DNA of 64,000 bases from Escherichia coli. Its GTDB lineage: Bacteria; Pseudomonadota; Gammaproteobacteria; Enterobacterales; Enterobacteriaceae. The notes under the pieces are model-generated. The model made no database searches. It was not told where the DNA came from and saw only the letters and a program-made list of their open reading frames with translations. Positions within the stretch are counted from its first letter, which is position 1. Each line of letters begins with the position of its first letter. A program made the position numbers and the translations under genes. Shown one piece after another: positions 3,001 to 50,908 of this stretch. The stretch lies in NCBI RefSeq assembly GCF_003334785.1, contig NZ_QOWV01000002.1; one strand, 5' to 3'.

Positions 3001-3854
3001 TCCGTCAGTGATAAATGTTTACGTAGGCGTAATTCAAATCTGGAATATTGCTCCAAGTAGCTAGGTGCAATGCCAGACGGCAGAATAATAATGACATTAT
3101 TCGCATAATCCCATTCAATATCAATCTGTTGAAGGTGTATTATTACATCAGTAGCATATTCCAGACCGCCTTCCTGGACGATCTGATCCATAACATCCTC
3201 ACGCACTTTATATCTTGTGCATTTCATTTCAAGTGCCGTGAGTACAGCCATTACTGGTGATGGTAACTGTGTTGTTTTCAGGCCGTCGATCTGACTGATC
3301 GCCTGGGCGACGGTGTTTTGCCATTCTAAAGAACAGGCGCTGAAGTCAAATGTGGCTGTTTTATTATCCCGTTGCGACACACTACAGGCTAAGCGACGTA
3401 ATTGGGTCAATTTGTCTGCTTGCTGAACAGGAACTCCGGGAAAGCGGCGATGACTTAACGTGGTGTGTACAACTTCGGGCGGAAAAACGACAGCAATATC
3501 TTTCGCCAGCCACGGTAAAACAGCATCTGTATTTTTGTCAGGCGCACGGGTTTCTGCTACGAAAGAGGGTTGTTCCTGAATAATGGTGGATAAGTCCGCT
3601 ACCTTGAGAGAGCCCGTTACCGTTTGGGAAGGTTGCAAAGAATTATCCTTCGCTTGCTCCACATACCCCTTCTTCACCTTCTCCGCAATCAGCTTAAGTT
3701 CCGCTTTTTCCGCTGCCGCAGCATCTGAAAAACTTTTTATCTGACTTTGCCCTTTGGTGCCAACTTTTCCCCAACTGATATGCAACTCGTTTCCCTGTTG
3801 CTCCACCGCCCAGAATTTATGTGATTTTTCGTCCTGATAGATAAAGTGTCTCAT
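60..3854 (-). CDS. molR: MolR, large WGR-domain protein (1264 aa), apparently intact
   Basis: Single uninterrupted 1264-aa ORF; N-terminus MRHFIYQDEKSHKFWAVEQQGNELHISWGKVG is WGR-like; position immediately next to metG. Confidence 0.8.
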   Translation of the reverse strand: MRHFIYQDEKSHKFWAVEQQGNELHISWGKVGTKGQSQIKSFSDAAAAEKAELKLIAEKVKKGYVEQAKDNSLQPSQTVTGSLKVADLSTIIQEQPSFVAETRAPDKNTDAVLPWLAKDIAVVFPPEVVHTTLSHRRFPGVPVQQADKLTQLRRLACSVSQRDNKTATFDFSACSLEWQNTVAQAISQIDGLKTTQLPSPVMAVLTALEMKCTRYKVREDVMDQIVQEGGLEYATDVIIHLQQIDIEWDYANNVIIILPSGIAPSYLEQYSRFELRLRKHLSLTEESLWQKCAQKLIAAIPHIPEWRQPLIALLLPEKPEIAHEIAQRLLGQKKLPSLEWLKIVATDEHILASLEKYHEPYAIFDDYYCGAIWSATVLQEQGVAALPRFAPYAASDYCADVLRHINHPFALTLLIRVAGQTKRCHDRMTKAIAAFPHAAMAALTELLGQKEENSWRIMLMTMLISQPALAEQVIPWLSTPAVAVLKSCQQQLTQPSNHASADLLPAVVVSPPWLSKKKKSPIPVLDLAPLGIEPICYLTEEISNQLLAKYIWYSKHITVSHEESTTNLLARMGFQRRIAGTYIKAPEAVVEAWLNEDYSTLLSEFKVFHSPTGHYWQLGILTTLPLEKAVKAWNALTLSPHTDTEYSMLHFGLKGLPGLVNSLARYPQEALPITNYFAASELAPAVARAFNKLKTLRENARSWLLKYPEHALTGLLPAALGKAGEAQDNARAALRMLTENGHQPLLQEIARRYNQPEVTDAVNALLALDPLDNHPTKIPTLPAFYQPSLWTRPVLKANAQSLPDSALLHLGEMLRFPQEEALYPGLLQVKDVCSADSLAGFAWDLFTAWQTAGAPSKESWAFTALGVLGNDDTARKLTPLIRAWPGESQHKRATVGLDILAAIGSDIALMQLNGIAQKLKFKALQERAKEKIADIAESRELTVAELEDRLAPDLGLDDNGSLLLDFGPRQFTVSFDETLKPFVRDVSGSRLKDLPKPNKSDDETRANDAVNRYKLLKKDARTIAAQQVARLESAMCLRRRWSLENFQLFLVEHPLVRHLTRRLIWGVYSAENQLLACFRVAEDNSSSTADDDLFTLPEGDISIGTPHVLEISPTDAAAFGQLFADYELLPPFRQLDRNSYALTEAERNASELTRWAGRKCPSGRVMGLANKGWIKGEPQDGGWIGWMIKPLGRWSLIMEIDEGFAVGMSPAELSAEQLLSKLWLWEGKAERYGWGSNSTQEAQFSVIDAITASELINDIEALFE

Positions 3855-8727: not shown

Positions 8728-9402
8728 ATGAAAGGATTATTATCTTTACTCATTTTTTCTATGGTCCTTCCTGCACATGCCGGAATTGTTATCTACGGGA
8801 CGCGCATTATTTACCCGGCAGAAAATAAAGAAGTGATGGTGCAGTTGATGAACCAGGGAAACCGTTCTTCGCTGCTGCAGGCGTGGATTGATGATGGCGA
8901 TACGTCATTACCACCAGAAAAAATTCAGGTTCCTTTCATGTTAACGCCACCAGTGGCAAAAATAGGGGCAAATTCCGGGCAGCAAGTAAAAATCAAAATT
9001 ATGCCGAATAAACTGCCCACTAATAAAGAAAGCATTTTTTATCTGAATGTTCTGGATATTCCACCAAATAGTCCAGAGCAAGAAGGTAAGAATGCACTGA
9101 AGTTTGCGATGCAAAACAGAATTAAGTTGTTTTACCGGCCAGCGGGTATTGCTCCGGTAAATAAAGCGACATTTAAAAAATTGCTGGTAAATCGCAGTGG
9201 CAATGGTTTGGTGATAAAAAATGACTCAGCTAATTGGGTGACGATTTCGGATGTCAAAGCTAATAATGTCAAAGTCAATTATGAAACTATTATGATTGCC
9301 CCCTTAGAAAGTCAGAGTGTTAATGTCAAAAGTAATAATGCAAATAACTGGCATCTGACCATTATCGATGACCATGGCAACTATATTAGTGACAAAATTT
9401 AA
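8728..9402 (+). CDS. yehC: periplasmic fimbrial chaperone (PapD-like)
   Basis: MKGLLSLLIFSMVLPAHAGIVIYGTRIIYPAENKEVMVQLMNQGN... has the typical chaperone N-terminus; start set at the ATG preceded by AAGAGG. Confidence 0.85.
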   Translation: MKGLLSLLIFSMVLPAHAGIVIYGTRIIYPAENKEVMVQLMNQGNRSSLLQAWIDDGDTSLPPEKIQVPFMLTPPVAKIGANSGQQVKIKIMPNKLPTNKESIFYLNVLDIPPNSPEQEGKNALKFAMQNRIKLFYRPAGIAPVNKATFKKLLVNRSGNGLVIKNDSANWVTISDVKANNVKVNYETIMIAPLESQSVNVKSNNANNWHLTIIDDHGNYISDKI

Positions 9403-9417
9403 TTGCAGGAGCTGCCT

Positions 9418-11898
9418 ATGTTGAGAATGACCCCACTTGCATCAGCAATCGTAGCGTTATTGCTCGGCATTGAAGCTTATGCAGCTGAAGAAACCTTTGA
9501 TACCCATTTTATGATAGGTGGAATGAAAGACCAGCAGGTTGCAAATATTCGTCTTGATGATAATCAACCCTTACCGGGGCAGTATGACATCGATATTTAT
9601 GTCAATAAGCAATGGCGCGGGAAATATGAGATTATTGTTAAAGACAACCCGCAAGAAACATGTTTATCAAGAGAAGTTATCAAGCGGTTAGGCATTAATA
9701 GCGATAACTTCGCCAGCGGTAAGCAATGTTTAACATTTGAGCAACTTGTTCAGGGTGGGAGCTATACCTGGGATATCGGGGTTTTTCGTCTCGATTTCAG
9801 TGTCCCGCAGGCCTGGGTGGAAGAACTGGAAAGTGGCTATGTTCCACCGGAAAACTGGGAGCGGGGTATTAATGCGTTTTATACCTCTTATTATCTGAGT
9901 CAGTATTACAGCGACTATAAAGCGTCGGGTAATAACAAGAGTACATATGTACGTTTTAACAGCGGGTTAAATTTACTGGGGTGGCAACTGCATTCTGATG
10001 CCAGTTTCAGTAAAACAAATAACAATCCAGGGGTGTGGAAAAGCAATACCCTGTATCTGGAACGTGGATTTGCCCAACTTCTCGGCACGCTTCGCGTGGG
10101 TGATATGTACACATCAAGCGATATTTTTGATTCTGTTCGCTTCAGAGGTGTGCGGTTGTTTCGTGATATGCAGATGTTGCCTAACTCGAAACAAAATTTT
10201 ACGCCACGGGTGCAGGGGATTGCTCAGAGTAACGCGCTGGTAACTATTGAACAGAATGGTTTTGTCGTTTATCAGAAAGAGGTTCCTCCTGGCCCGTTCG
10301 CGATTACAGATTTGCAGTTGGCCGGTGGTGGAGCAGATCTTGATGTCAGCGTGAAAGAGGCGGACGGCTCGGTAACCACCTATCTGGTGCCTTATGCAGC
10401 GGTGCCAAATATGCTGCAACCCGGCGTGTCGAAATATGATTTAGCGGCGGGTCGTAGCCATATTGAAGGGGCGAGCAAACAAAGTGATTTTGTCCAGGCG
10501 GGTTATCAGTATGGTTTTAATAATTTATTGACGCTGTATGGTGGCTCGATGGTCGCGAATAATTATTACGCGTTTACTTTGGGGGCTGGCTGGAATACAC
10601 GCATTGGTGCCATTTCCGTCGATGCCACTAAGTCGCATAGTAAACAAGACAACGGCGATGTGTTTGACGGGCAAAGTTATCAAATTGCCTACAACAAATT
10701 TGTGAGCCAAACGTCGACGCGTTTTGGTCTGGCGGCCTGGCGTTATTCGTCGCGTGATTACCGGACATTTAACGATCACGTTTGGGCAAACAACAAAGAT
10801 AATTATCGCCGTGATGAAAACGATGTCTATGACATTGCCGATTATTACCAGAACGATTTTGGCCGCAAAAATAGCTTTTCCGCCAATATGAGCCAGTCAT
10901 TGCCAGAAGGTTGGGGGTCTGTGTCATTAAGTACGTTATGGCGAGATTACTGGGGGCGTAGCGGCAGTAGTAAGGATTATCAGTTGAGTTATTCCAACAA
11001 CCTGCGACGGATAAGCTATACCCTCGCGGCAAGCCAGGCTTATGACGAGAATCATCATGAAGAGAAACGTTTTAATATTTTTATATCGATTCCCTTTGAT
11101 TGGGGTGATGACGTTTCGACGCCTCGTCGGCAAATATATATGTCTAACTCAACGACGTTTGATGATCAGGGGTTTGCCTCAAATAATACGGGATTATCAG
11201 GAACAGTAGGGAGTCGGGATCAGTTCAATTATGGTGTCAACCTGAGTCATCAACATCAGGGAAATGAAACGACAGCTGGGGCGAATTTGACCTGGAACGC
11301 GCCGGTTGCGACAGTGAATGGCAGTTATAGTCAGTCGAGTACTTATCGACAGGCTGGAGCCAGTGTTTCAGGGGGCATTGTCGCCTGGTCGGGTGGCGTT
11401 AATCTGGCGAACCGTCTTTCCGAAACGTTTGCTGTGATGAATGCGCCAGGAATTAAAGATGCTTATGTCAATGGGCAAAAATATCGCACAACAAACCGTA
11501 ATGGAGTGGTGATATACGACGGAATGACACCTTATCGGGAAAATCACCTGATGCTGGATGTGTCGCAAAGCGATAGCGAAGCAGAATTACGTGGCAACCG
11601 GAAAATTGCCGCCCCTTATCGCGGCGCGGTTGTACTGGTTAATTTTGATACCGATCAGCGCAAGCCATGGTTTATAAAAGCGTTAAGAGCAGATGGGCAA
11701 TCATTAACGTTTGGTTATGAAGTCAATGATATCCATGGTCATAATATTGGCGTTGTCGGCCAGGGAAGTCAGTTATTTATTCGCACCAATGAAGTACCGC
11801 CATCGGTTAATGTGGCAATTGATAAGCAACAAGGACTTTCATGCACAATCACCTTCGGTAAAGAGATTGATGAAAGTAGAAATTATATTTGCCAGTAA
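9418..11898 (+). CDS. yehB: fimbrial outer-membrane usher
   Basis: ~826 aa, signal peptide MLRMTPLASAIVALLLGIEAYA, size and position typical of an usher; AGGAG before ATG at 9418. Confidence 0.85.
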   Translation: MLRMTPLASAIVALLLGIEAYAAEETFDTHFMIGGMKDQQVANIRLDDNQPLPGQYDIDIYVNKQWRGKYEIIVKDNPQETCLSREVIKRLGINSDNFASGKQCLTFEQLVQGGSYTWDIGVFRLDFSVPQAWVEELESGYVPPENWERGINAFYTSYYLSQYYSDYKASGNNKSTYVRFNSGLNLLGWQLHSDASFSKTNNNPGVWKSNTLYLERGFAQLLGTLRVGDMYTSSDIFDSVRFRGVRLFRDMQMLPNSKQNFTPRVQGIAQSNALVTIEQNGFVVYQKEVPPGPFAITDLQLAGGGADLDVSVKEADGSVTTYLVPYAAVPNMLQPGVSKYDLAAGRSHIEGASKQSDFVQAGYQYGFNNLLTLYGGSMVANNYYAFTLGAGWNTRIGAISVDATKSHSKQDNGDVFDGQSYQIAYNKFVSQTSTRFGLAAWRYSSRDYRTFNDHVWANNKDNYRRDENDVYDIADYYQNDFGRKNSFSANMSQSLPEGWGSVSLSTLWRDYWGRSGSSKDYQLSYSNNLRRISYTLAASQAYDENHHEEKRFNIFISIPFDWGDDVSTPRRQIYMSNSTTFDDQGFASNNTGLSGTVGSRDQFNYGVNLSHQHQGNETTAGANLTWNAPVATVNGSYSQSSTYRQAGASVSGGIVAWSGGVNLANRLSETFAVMNAPGIKDAYVNGQKYRTTNRNGVVIYDGMTPYRENHLMLDVSQSDSEAELRGNRKIAAPYRGAVVLVNFDTDQRKPWFIKALRADGQSLTFGYEVNDIHGHNIGVVGQGSQLFIRTNEVPPSVNVAIDKQQGLSCTITFGKEIDESRNYICQ

Positions 11899-32883: not shown

Positions 32884-33030
32884 ATGAGCAAGCAAGTAAC
32901 ACTCATGACTGATGCGATTCCTTATCAGGAGTTCGCAAAACTAATAGGAAAATCGACATGAAGTGGTTTACTGAATTTGGCCACCTGAACAGAGGTGATA
33001 TGCTCACCTCAGAACAACACAGGTGCCATA

Positions 33031-34178
<1,148 letters not shown>

Positions 34179-34398
34179 CTCGGTGGCCAGTTTTTGTTGA
34201 CCACTTCAACAGGAGCGGTTCGTCGGATGATCGATAAAGGAAAGCTGCCTGTAATTGATATGACCGATCCACAATCAGCTTCAGGTCGTGCAGGTGAATA
34301 TTGGGTATACCTTCCGGCATGGAATAACGGACTAAAACTGGCTTATGAAAGCCGCCCTAAAGAGATTCGTGACGGCTGGTTGATGTGGTTAGGTCTCG

Positions 34399-45787: not shown

Positions 45788-46861
45788 ATGCGCCAGGAAA
45801 CCCGCTTTAAATTTAATGCCTACCTGTCCCGTGTTGCCGAACTGAACGGCATCGACGCCGGTGATGTGTCGAAAAAATTCACCGTTGAACCGTCGGTCAC
45901 CCAGACCCTGATGAACACCATGCAGGAGTCCTCTGACTTTCTGACCCGCATCAACATTGTGCCGGTCAGCGAAATGAAAGGGGAAAAAATTGGCATCGGT
46001 GTCACCGGCTCCATCGCCAGCACCACCGACACCGCCGGTGGCACCGAGCGTCAGCCGAAGGACTTCTCGAAGCTGGCGTCAAACAAGTACGAATGCGACC
46101 AGATTAACTTCGATTTTTATATCCGCTACAAAACGCTGGACCTGTGGGCGCGTTATCAGGATTTCCAGCTCCGTGTCCGTAACGCCATTATCAAACGCCA
46201 GTCCCTTGATTTAATCATGGCCGGTTTTAACGGCGTGAGGCGTGCCGAAACCTCTGACCGCAGCAGCAATCCGATGCTGCAGGATGTGGCGGTCGGCTGG
46301 CTGCAGAAATACCGCAATGAAGCCCCGGCGCGCGTGATGAGCAAGGTCACTGACGAGGAAGGGCACACCACCTCTGAGGTTATCCGCGTGGGTAAGGGCG
46401 GTGATTATGCCAGCCTTGACGCACTGGTGATGGATGCGACCAACAACCTGATTGAGCCGTGGTATCAGGAAGACCCTGACCTTGTGGTGATTGTGGGACG
46501 TCAGCTACTGGCGGACAAGTATTTTCCCATCGTCAACAAGGAGCAGGACAACAGCGAAATGCTGGCCGCTGACGTCATCATCAGCCAGAAACGCATCGGT
46601 AACCTGCCGGCGGTACGCGTCCCGTACTTCCCGGCGGATGCGATGCTCATCACAAAGCTGGAAAACCTGTCCATCTACTACATGGATGACAGCCATCGCC
46701 GCGTGATTGAGGAAAACCCGAAACTCGACCGCGTGGAGAACTACGAGTCAATGAACATTGATTACGTGGTGGAAGACTACGCCGCCGGTTGTCTGGTGGA
46801 AAAAATTAAGGTCGGTGATTTCTCCACACTGGCTAAAGCGACCGCAGAGCCGGGAGCGTAA
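45788..46861 (+). CDS. N: major capsid protein (P2 gpN)
   Basis: 357-aa ORF following O. Confidence 0.85.
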   Translation: MRQETRFKFNAYLSRVAELNGIDAGDVSKKFTVEPSVTQTLMNTMQESSDFLTRINIVPVSEMKGEKIGIGVTGSIASTTDTAGGTERQPKDFSKLASNKYECDQINFDFYIRYKTLDLWARYQDFQLRVRNAIIKRQSLDLIMAGFNGVRRAETSDRSSNPMLQDVAVGWLQKYRNEAPARVMSKVTDEEGHTTSEVIRVGKGGDYASLDALVMDATNNLIEPWYQEDPDLVVIVGRQLLADKYFPIVNKEQDNSEMLAADVIISQKRIGNLPAVRVPYFPADAMLITKLENLSIYYMDDSHRRVIEENPKLDRVENYESMNIDYVVEDYAAGCLVEKIKVGDFSTLAKATAEPGA

Positions 46862-46864
46862 CCG

Positions 46865-47608
46865 ATGACGAGTCCCGCACAGCGCCACATGATGCGGGTC
46901 TCGGCAGCGATGACCGCGCAGCGGGAAGCCGCCCCGCTGCGACATGCAACTGTCTATGAGCAGATGCTGGTTAAGCTCGCCGCAGACCAGCGCACACTGA
47001 AAGCGATTTATTCAAAAGAGCTGAAGGCCGCGAAAAAACGCGAACTGCTGCCGTTCTGGTTGCCGTGGGTGAACGGCGTGCTGGAGCAGGGCAAAGGTGC
47101 ACAGGATGACATTCTGATGACGGTCATGCTGTGGCGTCTGGATACCGGCGATATTGCCGGTGCGCTGGAGATTGCCCGTTATGCCCTGAAATACGGTCTG
47201 ACCATGCCGGGTAAACACCGCCGCACCCCGCCGTACATGTTCACCGAGGAGGTGGCACTTGCGGCCATGCGCGCCCACGCTGCCGGTGAGTCTGTGGATC
47301 CCCGCCTGCTGACGGACACCCTCGAACTGACCGCCACGGCTGACATGCCTGATGAAGTGCGCGCAAAGCTGCACAAAATCACCGGTCTGTTTCTGCGTGA
47401 CGCTGGTGATGCCGCCGGTGCGCTGGCTCACCTGCAGCGTGCGACACAGCTCGACTGTCAGGCAGGCGTCAAAAAAGAGATTGAACGACTGGAGCGGGAG
47501 CTGAAACCGAAGCCGGAGCCGCAACCAAAAGCGGCCACCCGCGCCCCGCGTAAGACCCGGAGCGTGACACCGGCAAAACGTGGACGCCCGAAAAAGAAAG
47601 CCAGTTAA
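46865..47608 (+). CDS. M: terminase small/endonuclease subunit (P2 gpM)
   Basis: 247-aa ORF with very basic C-terminal tail (KPKPEPQPKAATRAPRKTRSVTPAKRGRPKKKAS). Confidence 0.8.
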   Translation: MTSPAQRHMMRVSAAMTAQREAAPLRHATVYEQMLVKLAADQRTLKAIYSKELKAAKKRELLPFWLPWVNGVLEQGKGAQDDILMTVMLWRLDTGDIAGALEIARYALKYGLTMPGKHRRTPPYMFTEEVALAAMRAHAAGESVDPRLLTDTLELTATADMPDEVRAKLHKITGLFLRDAGDAAGALAHLQRATQLDCQAGVKKEIERLERELKPKPEPQPKAATRAPRKTRSVTPAKRGRPKKKAS

Positions 47609-47647
47609 CAACCGAATGCGCCCCGCGCCAGGGCGGCACGCCGGTCA

Positions 47648-48076
47648 GTGAGGGTGACCGGACTTATTGAATCGCTGTCACCGTCAGGGCGTCGGCGACT
47701 GAGCGCCGAACTGGCGAAACGTCTGCGGCAGAGTCAGCAGCGCCGGGTGATGGCACAGAAAGCCCCGGACGGCACACCCTACGCACCACGCCAGCAGCAG
47801 AGCGCCAGAAAAAAGACCGATCGCGTTAAGCGAAAAATGTTTGCGAAACTTATCACCAGTCGTTTTTTGCATATCCGCGCCAGCCCGGAACAGGCATCAA
47901 TGGAGTTTTTCGGCGGGAAGTCACCGAAAATCGCCAGCGTGCATCAGTTCGGTCTGTCGGAAGAAACCCGGAAAGACGGTAAGAAAATTGATTATCCGGC
48001 GCGTCCTCTGCTCGGCTTTACCGGTGAGGATGTGCAGATGATTGAAGAGATTATCCTGGCTCACCTTGAGCGTTAG
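47648..48076 (+). CDS. late morphogenesis protein; by position gpL (head completion), but the C-terminal HQFG...PARP motif resembles the gpS/virion-morphogenesis family
   Basis: 142-aa ORF starting at GTG 47648 with no ATG in frame upstream; identity as L versus S cannot be settled without a search. Confidence 0.55.
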   Translation: MRVTGLIESLSPSGRRRLSAELAKRLRQSQQRRVMAQKAPDGTPYAPRQQQSARKKTDRVKRKMFAKLITSRFLHIRASPEQASMEFFGGKSPKIASVHQFGLSEETRKDGKKIDYPARPLLGFTGEDVQMIEEIILAHLER

Positions 48077-48106
48077 TTTTATCCAGGCAGAGGCTGATGC
48101 GCAATT

Positions 48107-48140
48107 AAACATTGAGCGCCGTGCTGGTCGCTCAATGTTT
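48107..48140. other. perfect 12-bp inverted repeat (hairpin) at the junction between GC-rich late genes and the AT-rich cargo
   Basis: AAACATTGAGCG - 10 nt - CGCTCAATGTTT; no adjacent T-tract on either strand. Confidence 0.5.
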
Positions 48141-48146
48141 AGAGGT

Positions 48147-48932
48147 TTATGAGTGGTTTTTATTTGATGCTTTGTATTCTAAAACCTTCTTATTGGCGTA
48201 AAAGAATTTTGTATATGACAGGAATATAAGCAGACCTGAAATGAAATAGATTAGGGATATTATTAATAATGTTTTTCTGTGGCTGTTATTATCTTTAATC
48301 TCCTGACTTAACCATTCGGAGTCCTCCTCGTTTAGCTGTAAGAGCTTATTGCAGGCGATCTCAGGAAGTGTGTCTTTTATAAATACGTTTTGCAGACTCT
48401 TGCAATCGGCAAGGCTATAAGTTTTATTAAATTCAACTGTTTTATTTTTGAAGGATAAAAGAACTTTGTCACTATAAACATAGTACATCATATTTTTATA
48501 TGGTATACCTATGGCATCCCTTACTATAGCGGATTGTTCATTGTGTATGTAACATGCGAAGATAATATAAAGAATTCCGGCCAGGACTGCACTCATTGTT
48601 TTTGTGATGCATGGCGGTTCTGTTATGTCTCCCCAGAAGCGAGTAAGGAAAAAATCCGATGTTTTTAGTTTTCCATCAATCAGCCCCTGCTGTATCATTC
48701 TCACATCTTCGATGCCTGATACATTGATTCCGTTAAGTGTTTTAAATAGTTGAATATCGCGCCACTCGCGGTCCAGTCTTTTTAATTTTTTGTCTGAATA
48801 TCCAAATTTGAAATAATGTGCAATAAGCCTCATAAGGTTACTTTTACCAAAGCTAAAAAATGCTAATACTGCAAAGACCAAAAGATACAAAACGATTAGC
48901 TCCCACACATTAGTCACATTATAGCTGACCAT
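48147..48932 (-). CDS. hypothetical membrane protein (261 aa, 3 predicted transmembrane helices), foreign AT-rich cargo of unknown function
   Basis: ORF with strong Shine-Dalgarno (AAGGAGAG 7 nt before ATG); hydrophobic segments WELIVLYLLVFAVLAFFSF, MSAVLAGILYIIFACYI, KTLLIISLIYFISGLLIFLSY; AT-rich codon usage unlike the flanking phage genes. Confidence 0.6.
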   Translation of the reverse strand: MVSYNVTNVWELIVLYLLVFAVLAFFSFGKSNLMRLIAHYFKFGYSDKKLKRLDREWRDIQLFKTLNGINVSGIEDVRMIQQGLIDGKLKTSDFFLTRFWGDITEPPCITKTMSAVLAGILYIIFACYIHNEQSAIVRDAIGIPYKNMMYYVYSDKVLLSFKNKTVEFNKTYSLADCKSLQNVFIKDTLPEIACNKLLQLNEEDSEWLSQEIKDNNSHRKTLLIISLIYFISGLLIFLSYTKFFYANKKVLEYKASNKNHS

Positions 48933-49015
48933 TACGCTCTCCTTGAATGTTGTCTGGTGGTTCTACAAATGAATCCAGATAGCATAACTTTTATATATTG
49001 TGCAATCTCACATGC

Positions 49016-49651
49016 ATGAACACTCTCGCAAATATTCAGGAACTCGCGCGCGCACTGCGCAACATGATCCGCACCGGCATTATCGTTGAAACCGACCTTA
49101 ACGCCGGTCGCTGCCGTGTGCAGACCGGCGGCATGTGCACCGACTGGCTTCAGTGGCTGACCCATCGCGCCGGACGTTCGCGCACATGGTGGGCACCTTC
49201 CGTGGGGGAACAGGTGCTGATTCTGGCCGTGGGCGGTGAACTCGACACGGCGTTCGTTCTGCCGGGGATTTATTCCGGCGATAACCCTGCGCCGTCTGCG
49301 TCGGCTGATGCCCTGCATATCCGTTTCCCTGACGGGGCGGTGATTGAGTATGAGCCCGAAACCAGTGCACTCACGGTAAGCGGAATTAAAACGGCCAGCG
49401 TGACGGCTTCTGATTCTGTTACTGCCACGGTGCCGGTGGTCACGGTGAAAGCATCAACCCGCGTCACCCTGGACACACCAGAGGTGGTCTGCACCAACAG
49501 GCTGATTACCGGCACGCTGGAAGTGCAGAAGGGCGGGACGATGCGCGGCAACATTGAACACACCGGCGGTGAACTCTCATCAAACGGTAAGGTACTGCAT
49601 ACCCATAAACACCCCGGCGACAGCGGCGGCACAACCGGGAGTCCTCTATGA
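49016..49651 (+). CDS. V: baseplate spike/assembly protein (P2 gpV)
   Basis: MNTLANIQELARALRNMIRTGIIVETDLNAGRCRVQTGG..., 211 aa. Confidence 0.85.
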   Translation: MNTLANIQELARALRNMIRTGIIVETDLNAGRCRVQTGGMCTDWLQWLTHRAGRSRTWWAPSVGEQVLILAVGGELDTAFVLPGIYSGDNPAPSASADALHIRFPDGAVIEYEPETSALTVSGIKTASVTASDSVTATVPVVTVKASTRVTLDTPEVVCTNRLITGTLEVQKGGTMRGNIEHTGGELSSNGKVLHTHKHPGDSGGTTGSPL

Positions 49652-49995
49652 CAGCGCGTTATCTCGGAATGAATCGCAGTGATGGCCTGACTGTCACTGA
49701 CCTTGAGCATATCAGCCAGAGTATCGGCGATATCCTGCGCACACCGGTCGGCTCACGGGTGATGCGTCGTGATTACGGCTCGTTGCTGGCGTCAATGATT
49801 GACCAGCCGCAGACTCCGGCGCTTGAGTTGCAGATTAAGGTCGCCTGTTACATGGCAGTGCTGAAATGGGAACCCCGCGTCACCCTGTCATCCGTCACCA
49901 CGGCGCGCAGTTTTGACGGGCGAATGACGGTCACGTTAACCGGTCAGCACAACGACACCGGCCAGCCACTTTCGTTAACCATCCCTGTGAGTTGA
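49648..49995 (+). CDS. W: baseplate wedge protein (P2 gpW, GPW/gp25 family)
   Basis: 115 aa, overlaps the V stop. Confidence 0.85.
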   Translation: MTARYLGMNRSDGLTVTDLEHISQSIGDILRTPVGSRVMRRDYGSLLASMIDQPQTPALELQIKVACYMAVLKWEPRVTLSSVTTARSFDGRMTVTLTGQHNDTGQPLSLTIPVS

Positions 49996-49999
49996 AACC

Positions 50000-50908
50000 A
50001 TGCCGATTATCGACCTGAACCAGCTACCCGCACCGGATGTGGTCGAGGAGCTGGACTTTGAAACCATTCTTGCCGAACGCAAGGCGACACTGATTTCCCT
50101 TTACCCGGAAGACCAGCAGGAGGCGGTCGCCCGTACCCTGACGCTGGAATCCGAACCTCTCGTCAAACTGCTGGAGGAAAATGCTTATCGTGAGCTTATC
50201 TGGCGTCAGCGTGTGAATGAGGCCGCACGGGCGGTAATGCTGGCCTGTGCCGCCGGTAATGACCTTGATGTGATTGGTGCCAATTACAACACCACGCGCC
50301 TGATTATCACCCCGGCAGATGATTCGACCCTCCCGCCGACACCGGCAGTGATGGAATCTGACACCGATTATCGTCTGCGTATTCAGCAGGCGTTTGAGGG
50401 CTTAAGCGTCGCCGGGTCGGTGGGTGCCTATCAGTATCATGGTCGCAGTGCCGACGGGCGTGTCGCAGATATCTCTGTCACCAGTCCGTCTCCGGCCTGC
50501 GTCACTATCTCCGTGCTGTCACGTGAAAATAACGGTGTGGCATCCGAAGACCTGCTGGCGGTGGTGCGTAACGCCCTTAATGGCGAGGACGTCAGGCCGG
50601 TGGCCGACCGCGTGACCGTGCAGTCTGCCGCCATTGTTGAATACCAGATAAACGCCACGCTTTACCTTTACCCTGGTCCCGAAAGCGAACCCATCCGCGC
50701 CGCCGCCGTGAAAAAACTGGAAGCGTATATCACGGCACAGCACCGGCTGGGGCGTGACATCCGTCTGTCTGCCATTTATGCCGCTTTGCATGTGGAAGGC
50801 GTGCAGCGTGTCGAGCTGGCCGCACCACTGGCCGACATTGTGCTCAACAGTACGCAGGCGTCTTTCTGCACCGAATACAGCGTCGTGACCGGAGGCTCGG
50901 ATGAGTGA
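50000..50908 (+). CDS. J: baseplate protein (P2 gpJ)
   Basis: 302-aa ORF after W. Confidence 0.85.
   Translation: MPIIDLNQLPAPDVVEELDFETILAERKATLISLYPEDQQEAVARTLTLESEPLVKLLEENAYRELIWRQRVNEAARAVMLACAAGNDLDVIGANYNTTRLIITPADDSTLPPTPAVMESDTDYRLRIQQAFEGLSVAGSVGAYQYHGRSADGRVADISVTSPSPACVTISVLSRENNGVASEDLLAVVRNALNGEDVRPVADRVTVQSAAIVEYQINATLYLYPGPESEPIRAAAVKKLEAYITAQHRLGRDIRLSAIYAALHVEGVQRVELAAPLADIVLNSTQASFCTEYSVVTGGSDE

Follow-up and report, generated by a model that had tools for sequence, protein, structure and literature searches.

The putative O-operon terminator of phage P2 in an Escherichia coli prophage: a long hairpin without an adjoining U-tract that accompanies the cargo gene orf30

Canonical intrinsic terminators combine a stable stem with G-C pairs and a short loop with a U-tract, i.e. 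about five or more U among eight bases, beginning within 0-2 nt of the stem. Five terminators are annotated in phage P2, and one of them, feature 9397..9433 of the reference genome (AF063097.1 / NC_001895), is described as "putative rho-independent terminator for O operon". Since the 1990s, the O operon has been marked in the P2 record as putatively ending at this hairpin. The other four P2 terminators (tQ, V-operon, ogr and the one after B) are stable stem-loops located directly past the last gene of their operons, with short stems and clear T-runs. The primary descriptions of genes R, S and the orf30 region are reportedly those of Linderoth et al. 1994 and Haggard-Ljungquist et al. 1995.

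Beyond P2 itself, three kinds of systems invite comparison with the locus studied here. In the moron architecture, a prophage cargo gene equipped with its own promoter and terminator is placed between phage genes. In the bidirectional terminators of E. coli, the stem-loop between two convergent genes sets the place where polymerases collide, which results in termination in both directions (bioRxiv 10.1101/2022.10.23.513370). The third kind comprises stable stem-loops devoid of a U-tract: in E. coli, transcripts terminated by Rho have such stem-loops as their processed 3' ends, which are shielded from exonucleases and have the rut site just downstream (Dar and Sorek 2018, PMC6061677). As for the genomic position, that of orf30 is one of three sites of P2-like phages with horizontally acquired genes (PMC3091744, PMC6823313), and two papers on P2 defence hotspots mention neither the S-orf30 hairpin locus nor any terminator.

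The window, i.e. the whole 64,000-nucleotide stretch of E. coli DNA that was analysed (contig NZ_QOWV01000002.1), contains a P2-type prophage at positions 31235-61615, as found by full comparison with AF063097. It is flanked by the E. coli chromosome at yegQ/trhP-yegP-baeR. Megablast matched 47652-49800 to phage P2 and its close relatives, and in blastn against AF063097 the segment 47652-51337 aligned with P2 8943-12629, the genes S, orf30, V and W sharing 94.8-95.7% identity with P2. The features around the studied hairpin are as follows:

47652-48076, plus strand: gene S (tail completion), last gene of the late O operon, with its 5' end deleted (blastn; P2 gpS 8915-9367)
48077-48105: S-hairpin spacer of 29 nt, specific to orf30-bearing phages, near-invariant
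48093-48154, plus strand: extended imperfect hairpin enclosing the perfect stem, predicted by folding only
48106-48118: left arm of the hairpin, TAAACATTGAGCG, identical to P2 9397-9409
48119-48128: loop of the hairpin, CCGTGCTGGT, 10 nt, with the highest variability in the intergenic region
48129-48141: right arm of the hairpin, CGCTCAATGTTTA, identical to P2 9421-9433
48147-48932, minus strand: orf30, AT-rich cargo gene, annotated in P2 as nonessential (261-aa orphan protein)
48157-48165, plus strand: T5AT3 run, 2 bases past the extended stem, within the 3' end of orf30 and antisense to its Asn-Lys-Asn codons
48947-48974, plus strand: binding site of the late promoter activator (Ogr) of the V operon, equal to P2 10239-10266 ('activator binding site; activation of pV promoter')
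49016-49651, plus strand: gene V (baseplate), first gene of the next late operon

The sequence-only reading had described a perfect 12-bp inverted repeat with a 10-nt spacer at 48107-48140, placed between convergent stops at the junction of the late genes and the AT-rich cargo of a P2-family element. Our results agree with this description at each point and allow its parts to be named. The left arm AAACATTGAGCG (48107-48118) and the right arm CGCTCAATGTTT (48129-48140) pair over 12 bp with no mismatch across the spacer at 48119-48128, and T48106 and A48141 form a thirteenth pair. The late ORF is S and the cargo is orf30. The TAG of S (48074-48076, plus strand) and the TAA of orf30 (48147-48149, minus strand) are convergent, with a gap of 70 nt between them. 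In the 64-kb window, this is the sole perfect hairpin-type inverted repeat of at least 13 bp. With the spacer set at 3-20 nt, the chance expectation for perfect arms of at least 12 bp is 0.07 per 64 kb when calculated analytically and 0.17 in Markov simulations; for 13-bp arms it is 0.017.

RNA transcribed from either direction is predicted to form a stem-loop of 13-17 bp with about -20 to -25 kcal/mol. The inner CC and GG of the spacer are able to pair in the predicted fold, which adds two pairs and leaves a 5-nt apical loop; with the 13 perfect and these two inner pairs, the window stem-loop has -20.0 kcal/mol on either strand. Calculation of the folding energy, which had been proposed as a check on the hairpin, gave stable structures for 48077-48160 on both strands, i.e. 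-27.7 kcal/mol (z = -2.6) on the plus strand and -22.7 kcal/mol (z = -3.9) on the minus strand. The extended plus-strand hairpin has a predicted minimum free energy of -26.9 to -27.7 kcal/mol in the window versus -32.5 kcal/mol in the P2 sequence, and its lower stem is weak, with many G-U pairs. An Rfam scan of 46000-50500 with E up to 1 gave no match.

By its sequence, the window hairpin is the stem-loop already annotated in P2 as the putative O-operon terminator. It occupies the same place between the S and orf30 stops, all 26 arm bases (two arms of 13 nt) are common to it and P2 9397-9433, and the flanking sequences are likewise identical. It differs in the loop, which is CCGTGCTGGT in the window (10 nt) versus GCCATGCTGGT in P2 (11 nt) owing to one deleted base and one substitution, and this difference lowers the predicted plus-strand stability from -24.8 kcal/mol in P2 to -20.0 kcal/mol. 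It also differs in the O operon upstream, which has lost L through R. Since the reference genome of P2 already carries this annotation, which the sequence-only reading had not recognised, the hairpin is a known, ordinary feature and matters little beyond careful annotation. What is added here, namely the strict linkage to orf30, the contrast between arms and loop, the strand asymmetry and the position as the sole annotated P2 terminator without an adjacent U-run, is a set of refinements and not a discovery.

The prophage lacks the counterpart of P2 5950-8942, which comprises L, X, Y (holin), K (endolysin), lysA, lysB, lysC, R and the first codons of S. At the deletion junction (47652-47657) the M-L intergenic region is fused to S through a 6-base overlap. 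Due to this loss, the prophage is defective and its O operon is truncated upstream of the hairpin. The same junction was found, at 96.9% identity, in E. coli IAL7250 (NZ_CM130729.1), within a P2 prophage that has decayed further. Two further changes were noted in the window. An insertion of about 1.24 kb (32962-34205) breaks the cox gene of P2; its two overlapping ORFs resemble an IS3-family transposase pair, as judged from the ORF translations alone. The segment 51337-54804, the counterpart of P2 12629-17572 (end of gene I, the tail-fibre genes H and G, and the Z/fun cargo locus), gave no blastn match to P2 and has been replaced by a different sequence.

With respect to its stem, which is stable, contains G-C pairs and closes over a short loop, the hairpin resembles a canonical terminator. 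The stem of 13-17 bp is the strongest among the five annotated P2 terminators, the others having 5-10 bp. Unlike these others, however, the O-operon hairpin has no adjacent T-run. The T-score past the full stem is 0.38 on the plus strand and 1.06 on the minus strand versus 3.6-4.7 for the other four, and the first eight bases contain three T (plus) and two T (minus) versus five to seven. A consensus terminator scan did not call the hairpin. On these grounds we share the earlier opinion that this is not a canonical intrinsic terminator.

The accompanying claim that there is no T-tract on either side holds for the immediate flanks, and ceases to hold when the stem is redefined. As the three outer stem pairs are A-T, a shortened stem would be followed by TTTAGAGG on the plus strand and by TTTAATTG on the minus strand. 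The tails of this shortened stem are UUUAGAGG (plus) and UUUAAUUG (minus), with T-scores of 2.6 and 2.9, and in the minus-strand tail TTTAATTG five of eight bases are T. The AAA at the 5' side of the hairpin mirrors the TTT at its 3' side, each run being 3 nt long and lying within the stem. If the plus-strand stem is instead extended to 48154, the next bases are GG, followed by TTTTTATTT, and the run UUUUUAUUU at 48157-48165 lies two bases beyond its end. A U-tract of the canonical kind is therefore absent unless the stem is redefined in one of these ways. With the perfect stem lacking a U-run next to it, intrinsic termination of the simple kind is probably weak here, and other routes probably contribute.

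The distribution of the hairpin follows that of orf30. In the 80 viral contigs with the greatest similarity to P2 gpS, the sequences downstream of S fell into four classes. Class A (53 loci) has a gap of 66 bp between S and V, and this gap contains a GC-rich hairpin of unrelated sequence, GCCGCCGG-N6-CCGGCGGC. Class B (21 loci) has the studied hairpin and then orf30, and classes C and D (6 loci) have a different AT-rich minus-strand gene encoding 247 aa, with no comparable hairpin near S. The classes begin to diverge 2 bases past the S stop and converge at the start codon of V, at whose ATG homology to the cargo-less relatives picks up again. The hairpin is thereby located 29 nt inside the orf30-specific segment, and the Ogr site of the V promoter is at the right-hand end of this segment.

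The order S-hairpin-orf30 was found in 73 of 73 viral contigs encoding a relative of Orf30 (80-98% protein identity), and all 68 viral contigs with exact hairpin arms carry orf30. A search for the same hairpin in other P2-family genomes, suggested with the original description, therefore gave a divided answer: it is present in P2 and at all 73 orf30 loci, and absent from classes A, C and D. The hairpin-orf30 module occurs in 464 of 5,426 complete E. coli genomes (about 9%), being chromosomal every time. When one genome per species was scanned for the exact arms across about 100,000 species, two matches were obtained. One is a P2 prophage in a Citrobacter MAG; the other, in a Ktedonobacteraceae MAG, is an unrelated palindrome of 16 bp next to a transposase, which we treat as a coincidence, since about 0.1-0.2 chance matches are expected in 298 Gb.

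The protein encoded by orf30 has three hydrophobic stretches, which are probably membrane-spanning, and its gene is preceded by a strong Shine-Dalgarno sequence (AAGGAG). It belongs to PHROG 2407, a family of unknown function. Only four close protein clusters were found in 5.8 billion sequences, with no distant homologues, and no PADLOC or Pfam match was obtained.

Based on these observations, we consider it rather probable that the hairpin defines and protects the transcript 3' ends of the convergent genes S and orf30. The identity with the P2 element, the structure, the exclusive linkage to orf30 and the conservation of the arms over the loop (see below) are observed; termination, stabilisation and the route by which they would be achieved are what we infer from them. 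The hairpin would prevent the strong late transcript of the O operon from entering orf30 in antisense and, in the opposite direction, would keep orf30 transcription out of the late genes, where it would likewise be antisense. Both mRNAs would be left with an exonuclease-resistant 3' hairpin. Termination on the plus strand could plausibly be aided by the extended stem followed by UUUUUAUUU, and that on the minus strand by Rho acting on the C-rich downstream RNA. Head-on polymerase collisions positioned by the hairpin would be a further plausible aid. Two roles put forward by the sequence-only reading, a bidirectional stop and an RNA stability element, are thus the ones favoured by the evidence. 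They agree with the P2 annotation, itself putative, and are consistent with the folds predicted on both strands.

This reading is supported by the commonest cargo-less relatives, which also have a stable hairpin without a U-run past S (-17.1 kcal/mol). Among the observations against it, classes C and D, with another type of cargo at the site, have no comparable hairpin next to S, and the G-U-rich lower part of the extended stem is so weak in the predicted fold that it would form a poor terminator base. In comparison with the bidirectional terminators of E. coli, the hairpin is similarly a single stem-loop, predicted on both strands, between convergent stops. On the other hand, its A/T runs are just 3 nt long and part of the stem. 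Moreover, the two genes are probably expressed at different stages, S late in the lytic cycle and orf30 possibly in the lysogen, which would limit collisions.

It is also conceivable, although we propose it only tentatively, that the hairpin is a U-tract-less insulator travelling with orf30, which entered along with the gene for the membrane-protein cargo and the local V promoter and separates the cargo transcript expressed from the prophage from the late O operon. Such an insulator would act by polymerase pausing or by positioning of collisions, combined with capping of the 3' ends, and selection would bear mainly on the late (plus) strand RNA. If this were true, the cargo modules of P2 would come with transcriptional insulation of their own. 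The arrangement recalls a moron in that the hairpin occurs only with orf30, lies within the orf30-specific segment and adjoins the 3' end of orf30. Unlike in a moron, the orf30 segment also holds the late promoter of V, and the hairpin is better placed for S (29 nt) than for orf30 (5 nt) and more stable on the S strand. The missing U-run, the strict inheritance with orf30 and the conserved arms around a freely varying loop together make it a convenient natural test case for U-tract-less hairpins between convergent phage and cargo genes.

The main alternative concerns the point at which polymerase stops. The hairpin might serve in RNA 3'-end protection only: transcription would end further downstream, in a Rho-dependent or diffuse manner, and 3'-to-5' exonucleases would trim the RNA back to the stem-loop, by which the mRNA of S, of orf30 or of both would be stabilised. 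A stable stem that has no U-rich follow-on makes the locus similar to the protective stem-loops of Rho-terminated transcripts, and the RNA downstream of the hairpin on the minus strand, with more C (29%) than G (22%), is compatible with a rut-like composition. However, on the plus strand the downstream RNA is C-poor (C 13%, G 19%) and not rut-like, so that it would be a poor Rho loading site, and the T5AT3 run two bases past the extended stem is at least compatible with some intrinsic termination. We find pure protection unlikely, while noting that it overlaps with the preferred reading and that the sole difference is whether polymerase stops at the hairpin. The spacing of the genes also differs between the strands, the distance from the S stop to the hairpin being 29 nt and that from the orf30 stop to the stem 5 nt; the latter distance counts against the preferred reading, since a ribosome that terminates at orf30 would cover part of the first arm in the minus-strand RNA.

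The proposal that the hairpin defines and protects both 3' ends can also be set against the variation among carriers. Nucleotide diversity (pi) in 61 full-length loci was 0.023 in the 3' part of S, 0.003 in the 29-nt spacer, 0.007 in the left arm, 0.015 in the right arm, 0.063 in the loop and 0.065 in orf30. The loop is thus 4-9 times as variable as the arms, at a rate close to that of orf30. The spacer (48077-48105) has one variable column out of 29 and is less diverse than the coding sequence on both sides. The window loop CCGTGCTGGT is absent from 73 of 73 viral-contig loci, being one base shorter than every other variant, and the best E. coli genome matches listed each differ by one base in length across it.

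When pairs were counted in 12 distinct haplotypes, 98% of the cells were paired and 10 of the 16 pairs were invariant. Among the remaining stem pairs, three change on one side only and three are occasionally broken. There were no compensatory double substitutions among the 12 haplotypes, and covariation is therefore uninformative, as it neither supports nor tests the hairpin structure. Three stem substitutions keep wobble pairing on the plus strand only. The few natural variants that weaken the stem include a deletion within the right arm (locus L087) and a mismatch (locus L089). The predicted stability was greater on the plus strand than on the minus strand in nine of ten haplotypes (for P2, -24.8 vs -20.3 kcal/mol) and equal in the window; the cause is that the G-U pairs of the plus strand correspond to A-C mismatches on the minus strand. 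This asymmetry weakly favours a function in the late S transcript.

Part of this variation could be accommodated by a functionless palindrome, which arrived with the orf30 segment and persists through the recent common ancestry of its carriers. No covariation was seen, some natural variants break pairs, and the P2 annotation is itself 'putative'. Furthermore, diversity is low across the S 3' end and the whole spacer (pi 0.003-0.015). As the spacer and the S 3' end are at least as conserved as the arms, the low diversity of the arms could partly be a regional effect. Against this speaks the loop, which lies in the same low-diversity stretch and still shows several times the variability of the arms. 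In addition, a perfect 13-bp hairpin exactly between convergent stops is unlikely to arise by chance, and the palindrome is kept at every one of the 73 orf30 loci although Orf30 diverges to about 80% identity. Absence of any function thus seems improbable to us, and definition and protection of the transcript ends is still the reading that we prefer.

A role at the DNA level, e.g. as a dimeric-regulator site, a cruciform or a recombination site marking or mediating cargo insertion, appears highly improbable: the perfect 12-13 bp arms, 22 bp apart from centre to centre, could fit a dimeric DNA-binding protein, and the S-V gap is a recognised hotspot of acquired genes in P2-like phages (PMC3091744, PMC6823313) with at least three alternative contents, but the hairpin lies inside the module and off its boundary, has no partner arm at the other module end or in the rest of the window, does not occur in the other cargo variants found here and has no match in Rfam. 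The suggestion of the sequence-only reading that the repeat might be a recombination scar at the insertion boundary is not supported for similar reasons, as the classes diverge 2 bases past the S stop while the hairpin is situated 29 nt further in, and there is no second copy of an arm in the window.

Several known types of elements were also considered and rejected as the identity of the hairpin. It shows no match to the P2 sites of Ogr, Cox, Int or C. The adjacent GTTTAGAG agrees in seven of eight positions with the C operator half-site GTTTAGAT, a resemblance no greater than chance, with about 50 such matches expected in 64 kb. A mobile-element inverted repeat was dismissed in view of the boundary 2 nt past the S stop, the location of the hairpin 29 nt inside and the single arm copy. 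A dispersed palindrome of the REP type was dismissed as well, given the single copy in the window and the occurrence elsewhere in P2-type S-orf30 contexts only, bar one chance match. Inspection by eye did not favour an integron attC-like site, the core motifs being poor, extrahelical bases lacking and the element too short.

The palindrome of the Ktedonobacteraceae MAG, GTCGAACATTGAGCGC-N8-GCGCTCAATGTTCGAC, is located at positions 334-366 of L225 (JAFATZ010000053.1). It has an 11-nt arm core in common with the hairpin, and the ORFs next to it encode 314 aa (AAA-ATPase-like) and 870 aa (transposase-like). The match is probably due to chance, or the palindrome is possibly a transposon-end feature.

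Some observations were also made on the S-V gap of the relatives that lack orf30. In phage fiAA91-ss (L002, 1926-1991) and the 53 class A loci the entire gap is 66 bp. The hairpin within it is GC-rich, has -17.1 kcal/mol and is devoid of a U-run. It sits where the late promoter of V must lie, so that the O-operon end overlaps with the V promoter in these phages. In two other loci (L013 and L019), another AT-rich cargo of about 1.03 kb is located between the S stop (position 3453) and V; it contains a 247-aa minus-strand ORF, which is disrupted in L013. The insert of L019 begins with TTGTGCAA in place of TTGTGCCA. In L013, TTGTGCCA is found at both ends of the insert, i.e. right past the S stop and in the activator site of the V promoter, which hints that an exchange may have taken place at this motif.
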